From Escherichia coli 042 (GTDB lineage Bacteria; Pseudomonadota; Gammaproteobacteria; Enterobacterales; Enterobacteriaceae): a stretch of DNA of 64,000 nucleotides. Positions within the stretch are counted from its first letter, which is position 1. Each line of letters begins with the position of its first letter. The notes below the pieces were generated by a model. That model made no database searches. It was given only the letters and a program-made list of their open reading frames with translations, and had not been told where the DNA came from. The stretch lies in the NCBI RefSeq assembly GCF_000027125.1, contig NC_017626.1. One strand, 5' to 3'. Positions 3,384 through 8,725 of this stretch are shown here, one piece after another. The position numbers and the translations under genes were made by a program.

Positions 3384-3746
3384 GGGGCTGATTCTGGATT
3401 CGACGGGATTTGCGAAACCCAAGGTGCATGCCGAGGGGCGGTTGGCCTCGTAAAAAGCCGCAAAAAATAGTCGCAAACGACGAAAACTACGCTTTAGCAG
3501 CTTAATAACCTGCTTAGAGCCCTCTCTCCCTAGCCTCCGCTCTTAGGACGGGGATCAAGAGAGGTCAAACCCAAAAGAGATCGCGTGGAAGCCCTGCCTG
3601 GGGTTGAAGCGTTAAAACTTAATCAGGCTAGTTTGTTAGTGGCGTGTCCGTCCGCAGCTGGCAAGCGAATGTAAAGACTGACTAAGCATGTAGTACCGAG
3701 GACGTAGGAATTTCGGACGCGGGTTCAACTCCCGCCAGCTCCACCA
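3384..3746 (+). ncRNA. ssrA: tmRNA (SsrA), 363 nt
   Basis: Starts GGGGCTGATTCTGGATTCGACGGG, contains tag reading frame gcaaacgacgaaaactacgctttagcagcttaa (ANDENYALAA*), ends GGGTTCAACTCCCGCCAGCTCCACCA. Confidence 0.97.
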
Positions 3747-3912: not shown

Positions 3913-5142
3913 ATGGCAAGGCAGACTAAAAAACTCACAGACACTGAAATCAAAAACACCAAACCAGCAGACAAAGAGATCAATCTCTTCGATGGTGATG
4001 GGCTACTGCTACGAATCGCTCCTTCATCAAAAGGAGGGAAGAAGAACTGGTATCTCAGATATCCAGTGCCAGTAACCAAGAAGCGCACCAAGATGAGCTT
4101 GGGTACCTACCCTCACCTCTCATTAGCAAAGGCAAGAGCTTTGCGTGATGAATACCTGTCGTTACTTGCTAATGGTGTTGACCCTCAAGTCCACATCACT
4201 GAAAAAACTAATGCTCTGAAAGATGCCACGGAGCACACGCTACAAGCAGTTTCTCGAAAGTGGTTAGATGAGAAAATTAAGACTTCTGGCATCTCTCTAG
4301 ACCATGCAGAAGATATCTGGCGCAGCCTCGAAAAAAACATCTTTTCAACTCTGGGTGATGTTCCTATCAAAGAGATCCGCCCCAAAATGCTCAAGCAGCA
4401 TCTTGACCCAATTGAGCAGCGCGGTGTTCTCGAAACTCTACGTCGTATAATTTCCAGACTGAATGAAATCTTTCGCTATGCTGCCACGGAAGAGCTTATA
4501 GAGTTCAATCCTGCCGACAATCTCGCTCAGCGTTTCAGTAAACCTAAGAAGCAAAACATGCCTGCCCTTCCACCTGATGAGCTACCACGCTTCATGGTTG
4601 CTTTATCTAACGCATCTATACGGTTAGAAACCCGTATGCTGATCGAGTGGCAATTGTTGACGTGGGTAAGGCCCGGTGAAGCCGTTCGGGCAAGATGGTG
4701 TGATATTGATGAAGAGAGCAGATTTTGGAATATCCCTTCAGAATTCATGAAAATGAAACGCCCACATAAGGTTCCATTGAGTAAAGAAGCTCTCCGCATT
4801 TTAGAAAACATGCGCCCTATCAGTGGTCATAGAGAATGGGTTTTCCCCAGCATCAAAGCTCCCCTCAGTCATATGCATGAACAAACAGCTAATGCAGCCA
4901 TAATTCGTATGGGGTTTGGCGGAGAGCTTGTTGCTCATGGTATGAGATCTATTGCAAGGACAGCAGCCGAAGAATACGGTAAGTTTAGAACGGAGGTGCT
5001 TGAATCCGCTCTGGCTCATACTAAAAAAGATGAAATAATAGCCGCGTATAACCGTTCGGAATACCTAGTTGAAAGAGAAGAACTAATGAAATGGTGGGGG
5101 GATTATGTCAGCAGCAAAAAATATAAGATGATGGCAGCATAA
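3913..5142 (+). CDS. Tyrosine recombinase / integrase, P4 family
   Basis: MARQTKKLTDTEIKNTKPADKEINLFDGDGL... with C-terminal R..HGMRS..A....Y catalytic-region pattern; similar to but diverged from K-12 IntA; ATG at 3913 preferred over ORF-track start 3871. Confidence 0.88.
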   Translation: MARQTKKLTDTEIKNTKPADKEINLFDGDGLLLRIAPSSKGGKKNWYLRYPVPVTKKRTKMSLGTYPHLSLAKARALRDEYLSLLANGVDPQVHITEKTNALKDATEHTLQAVSRKWLDEKIKTSGISLDHAEDIWRSLEKNIFSTLGDVPIKEIRPKMLKQHLDPIEQRGVLETLRRIISRLNEIFRYAATEELIEFNPADNLAQRFSKPKKQNMPALPPDELPRFMVALSNASIRLETRMLIEWQLLTWVRPGEAVRARWCDIDEESRFWNIPSEFMKMKRPHKVPLSKEALRILENMRPISGHREWVFPSIKAPLSHMHEQTANAAIIRMGFGGELVAHGMRSIARTAAEEYGKFRTEVLESALAHTKKDEIIAAYNRSEYLVEREELMKWWGDYVSSKKYKMMAA

Positions 5143-5163: not shown

Positions 5164-6501
5164 ATGACACAGCATAAGGTGAAAGTAATGAGAATATCAA
5201 AAACATTAGAATCATTATTTACATTTCTAAAGGAAAAAGAGCAGAAAGGTCAACTATTCAATAAAGAGGCTATACTCACAGCCACCGGTTGGAAAGCGGC
5301 TACATTTAGAACTTATTGGGTTAAAGGGCAGTTATCTGACTTTATTAGCGCAATTGATGAAGATACATTTGAGGCATCAAACTGTCAAAACATCTCAGTT
5401 ATAGAGTTTTCGAAACTATTATCTCAAAGTAAGCATAGAAGAGGGTTAGGTCATAATTGCCAGTCGAAACTAGCAAAAGCATTATTAACAAAATCTAGAG
5501 ATAATATGATGCTTGCTCTTGAATTATATAATAGACCTTCAATTGAGAATAGAATGGATGCATTTGTAATGTGTTTTTGCACTTCATGGGAACAATTATT
5601 AAAAGCTATTTTGATTGAAAAAAATGGTGAAGAGTCAATTTTCAAAAAAGAAAACAAGCGAGGATTCAGAGAAACTATTTCACTAAGAGACTGCTTAGAA
5701 AAAACATTCCCATCGAATTCAAAGGTAAGAAATAATATAGAACAAATAACAGTTTTCAGAGATCAGGCTGTACACCTTTTAATGCCAGAAATACAAGGGA
5801 TAGCCTCAAGGATATTTCAGTCTGGCGTTCTTAATTATTCATCATATTTTGAAAAATTCACAGAGGTTTCTTTTCTCAATAACAATAGCACAGGAATGAT
5901 ATCCTTGGTAGGTGAGTTTAGAACACCGCCAATATCCGTACTGAAATCCATTTATGGAGAAGTAGCGACTGATATATTAGACTTAGCAACAACTCTTCAG
6001 CAAGAAGTTGATGATAAAAATGACATAGAGTATGCAATTCCCTTAAATGTAAAACTTGTTTTTGCGACATCAGATGATGATGGGAATACCATAACCTTAG
6101 CTAAAGCTGATGAGGGAATCGAGGGGCTTAAGAAGGCTCTAATTATAGAAAAACCAGTAGATAGATCAAGAACACATCCGTATTTGCAGAAGGATGCCAT
6201 TGAGCATATAAATGAAAAAATCTACGAACTTTATAGTATAGAAAAGATAGAAAAGCATTTAGTATTCAAAGATAACAAAACAGGAAAGAAAGCGATAAAT
6301 AAAAATTGCTTTGATGCTGTTATTTGTAAGAACGGATGGAAAAAATCAAATAATAAATATCATCACAAAAACAATAATCCAGAATACCACTATTATTCAC
6401 CAGCATTAGTAGATGAATTTGTCAAGAAAGCTATGACAAACGAAGATTATCTAATGAATACAAAAAAATGGTATAATGCCAGAAGAAGTAAGAAAAAGTG
6501 A
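5164..6501 (+). CDS. Hypothetical protein, about 437-445 aa, low GC, Lys-rich C-terminus
   Basis: Long ORF; alternative ATG at 5188 has an AAGGTG Shine-Dalgarno; no family assignable by eye. Confidence 0.6.
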   Translation: MTQHKVKVMRISKTLESLFTFLKEKEQKGQLFNKEAILTATGWKAATFRTYWVKGQLSDFISAIDEDTFEASNCQNISVIEFSKLLSQSKHRRGLGHNCQSKLAKALLTKSRDNMMLALELYNRPSIENRMDAFVMCFCTSWEQLLKAILIEKNGEESIFKKENKRGFRETISLRDCLEKTFPSNSKVRNNIEQITVFRDQAVHLLMPEIQGIASRIFQSGVLNYSSYFEKFTEVSFLNNNSTGMISLVGEFRTPPISVLKSIYGEVATDILDLATTLQQEVDDKNDIEYAIPLNVKLVFATSDDDGNTITLAKADEGIEGLKKALIIEKPVDRSRTHPYLQKDAIEHINEKIYELYSIEKIEKHLVFKDNKTGKKAINKNCFDAVICKNGWKKSNNKYHHKNNNPEYHYYSPALVDEFVKKAMTNEDYLMNTKKWYNARRSKKK

Positions 6502-6835: not shown

Positions 6836-7801
6836 TCATTCCTCAAATCTATATAACGCGCCATCAAGATATTCTTCAACAGTATCTATACCGATCCATC
6901 TTCGGTTCAAACTCTCAGCTACAGCACCGGCAGTCATCGACCCACCAAATGGATCAAGAACTAAATCCCCTTCATCTGTAAGCATTTTAATGAAGAATTC
7001 AGGAAGCTGCATAGGGAAACGCGCAGGATGAATTTTGATACCATTAGCTTTACATTTTTTTGTATAAACGTCATTAGCTGCATTATTACCCATTTTCAAT
7101 ACATCAGACGGTGTTTCATCATCAATAAAATTAGGTGGGATAGACCCTCCATTATGGGTTTTATCAAAAGATTCATTAATATTATGTCCTGATGGTCGAA
7201 CAGTAGTTTTAACACCTTTTGCTGCAAGCCGAAGCATGTCCTTGCTATAAGGACGAAGCACTTTTTTATTACTTGCTTTTGGGTGTGGCCCTTTACTAAA
7301 CCAGAAAACATACTCTACAGAATCCTTCACTCGGACTCGTTTGACTGTAACCCATTGAGCAGGTACAGGCATCTTTGCAGGGTTGTACCAGAAAGTCTCT
7401 TGCGCTAGTCTGAATCCTACTTCCTCAACTAAAGCAATAACTAACTTAAAATGATAGATAGATCTAGTTGGCTCACCGGGATTCCAAGAGCCCCCGATGT
7501 TCAAAACGAAACTGCCATCTTCTGTCAGTATCCTTTTGATTTCTTTCGCAAAATCAACAAACCACTCAACGTAGTCCTTCTGACAGACATTACCATATTC
7601 TTTCTTAAAATGAAGTGCATATGGTGGAGATGTGAAGACTAAGTTAACCGAGTTATCAGGTATTGACTTCATCACGTCTAACGAATCGGCGTGGAAGATC
7701 GAACCCAAGTTAGATTCGTAAAACGGTTCAAACCCGTTGACTAACTTTGTAGTTGAATTTTTCTCTTTTGATGAAAAGTCAAGCGTTTTTTGAATAGTCA
7801 C
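6836..7801 (-). CDS. DNA methyltransferase, beta-class amino-methyltransferase (N4-cytosine or N6-adenine)
   Basis: Motif IV TSPPY near the N-terminus and motif [11 protein letters not shown] near the C-terminus (order IV then I); no ATG upstream of the conserved N-terminal region, so start is GTG at 7801 or GTG at 7882. Confidence 0.8.
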
Positions 7802-7869
7802 AACAATAAATCTCGAAATGGGCAATCGGATTGCATTGTTGCGTACATAACACAAGGGATCAAGTACAG

Positions 7870-8559
7870 ATGAACCAACCACAGGACTTTACAGCTCTTC
7901 TTAACAGCTTAACTCCTCAAGAGCAGCAAATGCTTTTCACGCAACTTCGCGGAAGAATTCCCATCCATCCTCTTGAACAGCAATGGAATATTACAGCAGA
8001 ATTCATTTTAGAAGCCATTGCGCGAAGCCAAGATATCACGAAACGAGGCGTAAGAGGAATCATTGCAGAGCTATGTTTCGATACATATATCATAGGTGCA
8101 ATGAAACATAAGGGCTGGATACAACATCAACTTTTTGGAGATTTACCCTATGATGCACTGATTTCTCATCCTCATGTCGGGGAAATAAAAATACAAACTA
8201 AAAACCAACGACTTGAACGTGGAGTCCCAAAATACGCAAATGGACCAATGATAAAATTCAATCCATATGTCGAAGGTTGGTATGTTTGCGAAACACAGAA
8301 AACGAGGACAGGAAAAAATGCGGAAGGGTTAGATACGAGGCCATATAGATTTGGTGAGTTTGATATACTATCAGTTTGCCTCCATCCGTCATCGGGTGAT
8401 TGGACACGATTCATGTTTTGCCCTGCATATACACTAATGCCAAGAGCGACAAATCCTGAACTAATTGCTGTTTTACAACCAGTACCACCTACACGACAAG
8501 GAAATTGGACTGATAATCTTGAGGAAGCGATTGAATGGCATTTGAACCGTAATCGTTAA
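7870..8559 (+). CDS. Putative restriction endonuclease partner of the methyltransferase (PD-ExK-like motif)
   Basis: Divergent from the methyltransferase with a short shared control region; ATG at 7870 has an AAGGG ribosome-binding site; motif [18 protein letters not shown] fits D...ExK. Confidence 0.45.
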
Positions 8560-8597
8560 AAACGGGGAATATAGCCAACTATATCTATAATATTAAA

Positions 8598-8725
8598 AGG
8601 GCCTTACGGCCCTTTCGTTTTCCCTTAAAGGGAACTCTCCCTTGGAGAGAATACATATCCCCACACTTGGGGCAAATCAATCAGCCCATTGGGCTGTACA
8701 CCACTCCCCATACATGGGGCAATCA
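8598..8725. repeat. Array of six consecutive GC-rich mini-hairpins (5-6 bp stems, 3-4 nt loops)
   Basis: GGGCC-TTAC-GGCCC, CCC-TTAAA-GGG, CTCTCC-CTT-GGAGAG, CCCCA-CACT-TGGGG, CAGCCC-ATT-GGGCTG, CCCCA-TACA-TGGGG; two units share the context TGGGGCAA(A)TCA. Confidence 0.6.

Follow-up and report, generated by a model that had tools for sequence, protein, structure and literature searches.

Results and Discussion

A Divergent Methylase and Predicted Nuclease Gene Pair

The DNA analysed here is a 64,000-nucleotide stretch of the Escherichia coli 042 chromosome (contig NC_017626.1; hereafter the window). Close to one end it carries two genes, one for a 321-residue beta-class DNA methyltransferase (M) and one for a 229-residue protein (R). 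We consider it very probable that M and R form a two-gene Type II restriction-modification (R-M) system located on an island integrated at ssrA, in which R is the cognate endonuclease; the subtype is most likely IIP. A sequence-only reading of the window had proposed such a pair with the 229-residue protein as its endonuclease, and this proposal is supported by the homology of M to M.PvuII, by a predicted nuclease core in R, and by the joint inheritance of the two genes. The divergent layout described in that reading was also found, with M and R as separate genes on opposite strands and 68 bp between them. The coordinates of all features are collected in Table 1.

Linkage is the strongest argument that M and R are a cognate pair. 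Loci of the R family were collected by a scan limited to one genome per species, which returned 69 loci distributed among Proteobacteria, Acidobacteria, Planctomycetes, Bacteroidetes, Ignavibacteria, Verrucomicrobia, Chloroflexi, Cyanobacteria, Deinococcota, Gracilibacteria, and Thaumarchaeota. A PvuII-like methylase was divergently adjacent to the R homologue in every locus whose upstream sequence reached at least about 0.5 kb (66 of 66); in the remaining 3 of the 69 the contig edge was too close to judge methylase linkage. Five loci on other contigs were also checked by hand, and all five had the divergent methylase. The settings covered in this way were a mobile element of Burkholderia cepacia, the chromosome of a deltaproteobacterium, three contigs from metagenomes, and a site next to a cyclic oligonucleotide-based antiphage signaling system (CBASS). 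The partner was always an N6_N4 methylase of 321-330 residues, and the surrounding genes were otherwise unrelated. Across loci, identity to the proteins of the window was 57-86% for the methylases and 37-76% for the nucleases, and M and R co-vary in sequence.

The two genes do not show the same degree of conservation. The methylases of Limnohabitans and Zoogloea are 85% and 86% identical to M of the window, respectively, and their nucleases are 50% and 76% identical to R. Either R evolves much faster than M or R has been exchanged within the family; the latter could succeed only if all members of the family have one specificity in common. In plasmid pH6Ac of Methanothrix harundinacea (L096:1542-3367), a 203-residue nuclease is divergent from a 64-residue open reading frame (ORF) and a methylase that is 57% identical to M of the window; here it is M, not R, that the small gene accompanies.

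The copy of the pair in E. coli KC-Dl-1 differs from the window at 37 positions over 2.2 kb (1.6% DNA divergence). Eight substitutions fall in the genes, seven in M and one in R, and all of them are synonymous, which shows purifying selection on M. An index of public assemblies holds the exact 229-residue protein in about 2,500 blocks, and variants of at least 90% identity are present in Klebsiella, Salmonella, Pectobacterium, and Yersinia, in every case under the label "hypothetical."

Table 1: Features of the M and R genes, of their products, and of the surrounding island, in window coordinates.
Feature	Position	Strand	Remarks
ssrA (transfer-messenger RNA), attachment site	3384-3746	+	island follows
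Island integrase	3913-5142	+	first gene of the island
DUF3644 gene	5188-6501		between integrase and M
M gene, 321-residue beta-class DNA methyltransferase	6836-7801	-	GTG start; RefSeq WP_000155179.1, "DNA-methyltransferase"
AdoMet (S-adenosylmethionine)-binding motif I of M, residues 283-292	6926-6955	-	C-terminal to motif IV
Motif IV of M, TSPPY, catalytic loop, residues 57-61	7619-7633	-	aligns to SPPF of M.PvuII (SPP[YF] form)
Divergent spacer, 68 bp	7802-7869		must house the promoters of both genes; no controller gene
Shared element GCATTGTTGCGTAC then AAGGGATCAAG	7833-7846 onward		in the spacer; common to controller-less relatives
R gene, 229-residue predicted restriction endonuclease	7870-8559	+	ATG start; RefSeq WP_001075573.1, "hypothetical protein"
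N-terminal all-helical region of R, five helices, residues 1-80	7870-8109	+	secondary structure of the model; last helix bears E67
Predicted PD-(D/E)XK core of R, mixed alpha/beta, residues 84-205	8119-8484	+	from the model, invariant residues, and I-Ssp6803I alignment
E67	8068-8070	+	near-invariant, 71/74 relatives
D95	8152-8154	+	invariant, 73/73 relatives
Q109-x-K111	8194-8202	+	invariant, 72/72 each
E141-T-Q-K-T-R	8290-8307	+	E141 invariant
RPYRFGEFD	8338-8364	+	invariant stretch
Terminator-like G+C-rich hairpin and T run	8596-8615	+	37 bp past the R stop codon
CAGCTG sites	714, 3655, 10282, 20179, 25350, 39024, 39117, 41450, 50871, 52681

The Methylase Is Homologous to M.PvuII

M matched the Pfam family N6_N4_Mtase (PF01555) with an E value of 7e-43 and the PADLOC model MTase_II, which describes Type II methylases, with 1.5e-102. 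Against M.PvuII (PDB 1BOO) the E value was 1e-90 over residues 23-319, and the identity of about 51% (48-54%) extended over the full length, the segment from motif VIII to motif X with its target-recognition domain included. By this comparison of sequences, M is homologous over its full length to M.PvuII, a Type II enzyme that methylates cytosine at N4 and whose target is the internal cytosine of CAGCTG (PMC7544214). TSPPY precedes motif I in M, which bears out the beta-class amino-methyltransferase order recognised in the sequence-only reading. One difference is an insertion of 6-12 residues, carried by all methylases linked to the 229-residue family and missing from M.PvuII.

The reading frame of M that ends at 6836 can be extended to a GTG at 7882, which would give 348 residues. 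Both the RefSeq annotation and conservation in relatives support the GTG at 7801 as the probable true start, with a product of 321 residues; the start codon and first residues are kept in the Zoogloea and Limnohabitans relatives, and the DNA upstream diverges.

The arrangement of the pair mirrors that of the PvuII system of plasmid pPvu1 from Proteus vulgaris (CAGCTG, N4-methylcytosine), in which M.PvuII is divergent from a C.PvuII-R.PvuII operon. The likeness does not extend to the nucleases. R.PvuII and R gave an hhalign probability of 0.2% and no PDB sequence match; R.PvuII has 157 residues and the motif D58...E68-x-K70, whereas R has 229 residues, an extra N-terminal helical domain, and D...QxK. 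The PvuII system also has the regulator C.PvuII and the window pair has none.

Methylases that are 52-55% identical to M lie directly beside a nuclease gene in Thiothrix plasmid pThCT3_1 (L098:755-2672) and in a Roseivivax plasmid (L097:1096-4582), where the partner is instead an HNH endonuclease encoded downstream of the methylase in the same direction. A 454-residue "restriction endonuclease" also precedes the methylase in Roseivivax. PvuII-like methylases of one clade thus occur with nucleases of at least three unrelated kinds, namely, R.PvuII, HNH enzymes, and the 229-residue family.

Predicted Fold and Active Site of the 229-Residue Protein

A sequence search gathered the relatives of R in 1,361 clusters. 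An alignment of 35 diverse members of the family was the basis of an AlphaFold2 model of R, which reached a mean pLDDT (predicted local distance difference test) of 91.8 and a pTM (predicted template modelling score) of 0.86. The core fold alpha-beta-beta-beta-alpha-beta was present in the model, preceded by the N-terminal helical region. The best structural match of the model was the homing endonuclease I-Ssp6803I, and restriction enzymes appeared among the lower matches, the fold neighbours including EcoRV, PvuII, ThaI, and SwaI; Holliday-junction resolvases (Hjc) and the modification-dependent enzymes NhoI and DpnI were also found. The motifs of I-Ssp6803I correspond one by one with those of the family: SYD, VQVK, VVDNRRTR, and SPYRGNDFD align, respectively, with GD..YD, QxK, acidic..TR, and PYR..FD. 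When the 35 relatives were compared with the Pfam family PDDEXK_5 (PF11645), 5 matched it at E ≤ 0.001 (best 3.5e-6) and 11 at E ≤ 0.1. Relatives of 35-59% identity carry the UniProt label "Restriction endonuclease."

The sequence-only reading had named a string with a D...ExK-like motif. The string is present at residues 94-111 (8149-8202) and its aspartate, D95, is invariant, so this part of the claim stands. E105-x-K107 is rejected as the catalytic motif because both residues vary across relatives: position 105 is glutamate in only 15 relatives and position 107 is mostly R, K, S, or T. We propose D95...Q109-x-K111 as the putative catalytic motif, with the xK element four residues beyond E105-x-K107. 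At the position of Q109-x-K111, an archaeal relative from Methanothrix (hhalign probability 99.2%) carries a canonical E-C-K, and therefore Q109 occupies the classical acidic position. Residues Q113, R114, E141, R146, R157, and Y159 were also invariant across 72-74 independent loci. One of the 74 family loci has an in-frame stop at the invariant Q143, which may indicate a pseudogene or an alternative code (a Gracilibacteria metagenome-assembled genome is among the loci).

Considering that I-Ssp6803I and Hjc were the best structural matches and that NhoI and DpnI were among the others, R could be a nuclease of another kind lying by an orphan methylase, such as a homing-type endonuclease, an enzyme that resolves junctions or repairs DNA, or a Type IV enzyme, which depends on modification. 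This is very improbable. The gene of I-Ssp6803I is part of a group I intron, and the enzyme has about 150 residues and acts as a tetramer on a 23-bp target (PMC3384342). R, in contrast, is free-standing and has an added N-terminal domain of 80 residues, and its family is always linked to a methylase; no Rfam introns were found in the window, and the R gene is not inside an intron or an intein. A modification-dependent enzyme would be lethal next to a methylase that produces its substrate. The divergent link to a single methylase clade in every locus that could be judged is the signature of a cognate pair, as is consistent with the covariation of the two sequences.

Possible Expression Control by the Spacer and by a Small Helix-Turn-Helix Gene

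Between M and R, 57 of the 74 family loci have a small gene of about 70 codons with a 4-bp overlap with the R start (examples are L003:4722-5000, L005:3715-4000, and L006:3801-4004). Its product has a weak helix-turn-helix (HTH) signature of the HTH_17, excisionase-like type and no similarity to C.PvuII. The start codon of this gene lies inside a conserved palindrome, GGTTGACAaTGTCAACC, and the palindrome, GGTTGACA(a)TGTCAACC, holds TTGACA on both strands; from its sequence, it looks like the operator of a putative controller protein. A small HTH gene ahead of R is likewise a trait of the C-regulated systems PvuII, BamHI, and Esp1396I. The known C proteins, however, are of the Xre/HTH_3 type, unlike the HTH_17/excisionase-like protein of the relatives, and the window pair has neither. 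In most relatives the small HTH protein probably delays R expression, as C proteins do; in the E. coli lineage, which lacks this gene, timing would have to come from the 68-bp divergent promoter region.

Immediately ahead of the R start, the spacer has an element at 7833-7866 that reads (G)CATTGTnGCGTAC and then AGGGG(G)AGCAAG (written also ATTGTnGCGTAC...AGGGGGAGCAAG). It is common to the window and to the loci of its nearest relatives, B. cepacia (L002), Zoogloea (L011), and Limnohabitans (L012), all of which lack the small HTH gene, and we take it to be the probable promoter or leader of R. A 13-bp palindrome of the spacer, GCAATCGGATTGC (7822-7834), was discarded as a regulatory site, being unconserved in relatives and within chance expectation.

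Candidate Recognition Site

Site avoidance was calculated in 286 kb of sequence flanking family members, leaving out the R-M genes themselves. CAGCTG was the most under-represented of the 64 six-base palindromes, with 37 sites observed against about 115 expected (observed/expected ratio, O/E, 0.32). It held the first rank at Markov orders 2 and 3, and with order 3 it also came first in every one of three GC strata. Of 300 bootstrap resamples, 204 placed it first with the order-3 model and 77 with the order-2 model. Four-base palindromes gave no avoidance signal in the flanks. The window itself has 10 CAGCTG sites, compared with about 30 expected from a third-order Markov model, and none of them is in the R-M genes or the spacer. 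Taking into account both the homology to M.PvuII and the avoidance of the site, we regard the chances that CAGCTG is the recognition sequence as about evenly balanced. The sequence-only reading had allowed for a novel specificity; what evidence there is favours, weakly, a PvuII-like site.

A chromosomal Type II m4C methylase of CAGCTG, M.SenA46IV, has been described in Salmonella Agona 460004 2-1 on the basis of its methylome (PMC4490842). Among the plasmids of PLSDB the R family is essentially absent, being found only in Methanothrix pH6Ac, and the predicted CAGCTG methylases of Salmonella plasmids were therefore excluded as representatives of the window system.

Weighing the Assignment

Several results count against a working R-M pair or against the specificity suggested for it. 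R had no sequence match in Pfam, NCBIfam, PADLOC, PHROGs, or PDB; against Pfam there was nothing even at E ≤ 10, lenient cut-offs brought up no NCBIfam, PADLOC, or PHROG model either, and membership in PDDEXK_5 is marginal and indirect. This agrees with the sequence-only reading, which saw no other recognisable function in the protein. (Matches to a tautomerase, E 0.34, and to ChpB, E 0.18, were discarded as noise.) The link between the family profile and I-Ssp6803I is weak, with an E value of 0.34. R has a glutamine at the classical (D/E) position, and the assignment of metal ligands is uncertain. Selection on R alone was not demonstrated, because only one substitution of the KC-Dl-1 comparison lies in R. 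In the 68-bp spacer, a sigma-70 consensus scan, which misses the 7833-7866 element, gave no strong promoter, and there is no controller gene.

As for specificity, the controls also showed under-representation of CAGCTG. In the E. coli window, a recent host, O/E was 0.32 and the rank 8; in five 50-kb stretches of Sinorhizobium, Ralstonia, and Cupriavidus replicons O/E was 0.41-0.82, and 0.59-0.63 when these were pooled, with ranks of 9-16. The avoidance is about twice the generic level in controls that are few and heterogeneous, and we count it as weak support for this reason. Since nuclease partners have been swapped within the methylase clade, the homology of M alone cannot fix the specificity either.

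The glutamine, the spacer with neither promoter consensus nor controller, and the single substitution available for testing selection on R could also mean that M is effectively solitary in E. coli and that R is silent, attenuated, or catalytically dead, Q109 being then an inactivating change. Decayed R-M systems with a silent or dead nuclease are many. We consider this explanation unlikely. The glutamine is a trait of the family and not a sign of decay, because it is invariant across phyla (72 of 72) and is matched by VQVK of I-Ssp6803I, an active enzyme. Furthermore, the R ORF is intact and carries every residue that is invariant in the family, identical R is found in thousands of assemblies and several genera, and a terminator follows the gene.

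Proposed Mechanism

For cleavage, the methylated base, the recognition sequence, the roles of the residues, the oligomeric state, and the defence phenotype, we infer the following scheme. M would methylate its own recognition sites and so protect the host; by homology, its product would be N4-methylcytosine at a short palindrome, with CAGCTG as the best guess. R, probably as a dimer and in a Mg2+-dependent manner, would cleave this site in phage or plasmid DNA that enters the cell without the methylation. Judging by the fold neighbours of R, the cut could well leave blunt ends. Its proposed active site consists of E67, D95, and Q109-x-K111, and E141 is probably the second acidic group. The outcome would be restriction of incoming DNA, stabilisation of the island, or both.

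A broader proposal is more speculative, and we hold it to be doubtful. According to it, the family would be a PvuII isoschizomer unrelated in sequence, in which the specificity of the methylase was kept after exchange of the nuclease; it would be the lineage source of I-Ssp6803I (or the reverse), and most of its members would rely on controllers of a new class, distinct from Xre, whose operator is GGTTGACA-n-TGTCAACC. If this is true, the family would concretely connect the evolution of restriction enzymes with that of homing endonucleases.

The ssrA Island and the Possible Role in Its Maintenance

The pair is near the integrase end of a mobilizable island of low GC content, integrated at ssrA and extending from about 3.9 to 30 kb, which carries mobilisation genes (MobQ, TraD, TraW, and DotA/TraY) and H-NS-like genes. 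Positions 3-30271 of the window match isolate AHB1 at 99.5% identity, and the 2.2 kb around the pair is 100% identical to strains MS 21-1 and AHB1; the NCTC assemblies UGDJ01 and UGFH01 are further carriers. The wider context of the island was read against AHB1, given that the mapping to MS 21-1 was wrong beyond about 11.5 kb. The GC content of M and R is 0.39-0.41, compared with 0.52 in the core genome, and 4 of 5,426 complete E. coli genomes carry the pair. The low GC together with this rarity points to a recent mobile spread; the analysis shows that the pair was acquired recently by horizontal transfer and lies on an island that was itself acquired horizontally.

Related E. coli islands retain the MobQ/DotA backbone, and their cargo varies (GmrSD; a reverse transcriptase with a TIR protein; an adenylate cyclase with a PIN protein). 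KC-Dl-1 retains the order integrase, DUF3644, M, R and has ParB/RepB downstream. The DUF3644 gene always adjoins M in the enterobacterial copies, and it does not do so in other phyla.

It is well established that Type II R-M systems, for instance PvuII, act as addiction modules. It is conceivable, though we judge it improbable, that the pair works mainly in its own interest, as a module of post-segregational killing that stabilises the ssrA island. Its place in a conserved module of integrase, DUF3644, M, and R beside the integrase, with downstream cargo that varies by strain, fits such a role, as do the GC content and the few carriers that speak for recent mobile spread. However, the same role is compatible with defence, and the sequence does not separate the two. 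In related islands this region holds the defence genes named above, and one relative adjoins CBASS, both of which fit a slot for defence cargo.

Other Features of the Window

The 10.7 kb between 30272 and 41019 is missing in AHB1 and common in E. coli, and holds ypjA, a recombinase, and ypjC-like and amylase-like genes. Within it, at 37998-38070(-), there is a transfer RNA gene (Rfam 71.6 bits) with a CAT anticodon that ARAGORN called tRNA-Met; we presume that it may be the ileY-type tRNA-Ile of the region. At 46305-46381(+), in the core region near the gab operon, Rfam naRNA4 was found above its gathering score; this is a nucleoid-associated noncoding RNA derived from repetitive extragenic palindromic (REP) sequences.

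Significance

The PDB, NCBIfam, PADLOC, and literature searches gave no characterised relative of R (REBASE was not queried), and the literature search found no papers on WP_001075573.1 or WP_000155179.1. The system is nevertheless very probably an ordinary Type II R-M system, and the UniProt label of the more distant members was already known. The general understanding of R-M systems is unchanged. The interest lies in the annotation gap, the swapping of partners, the kinship with a homing endonuclease, and the unusual HTH regulator of the relatives. This nuclease family, which comprises more than 1,300 clusters, is under-annotated: Pfam, NCBIfam, and PADLOC do not see it, and RefSeq lists it as "hypothetical" in E. 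coli, Klebsiella, Salmonella, Pectobacterium, and Yersinia. Automated defence surveys probably score such loci as orphan methylases and in this way undercount R-M systems. Among methylase-linked proteins, none known is closer to I-Ssp6803I than the R family. If R cuts CAGCTG or a related site, it could be an alternative to PvuII, and it would influence how readily the clinical strains with the island can be transformed and take up plasmids.

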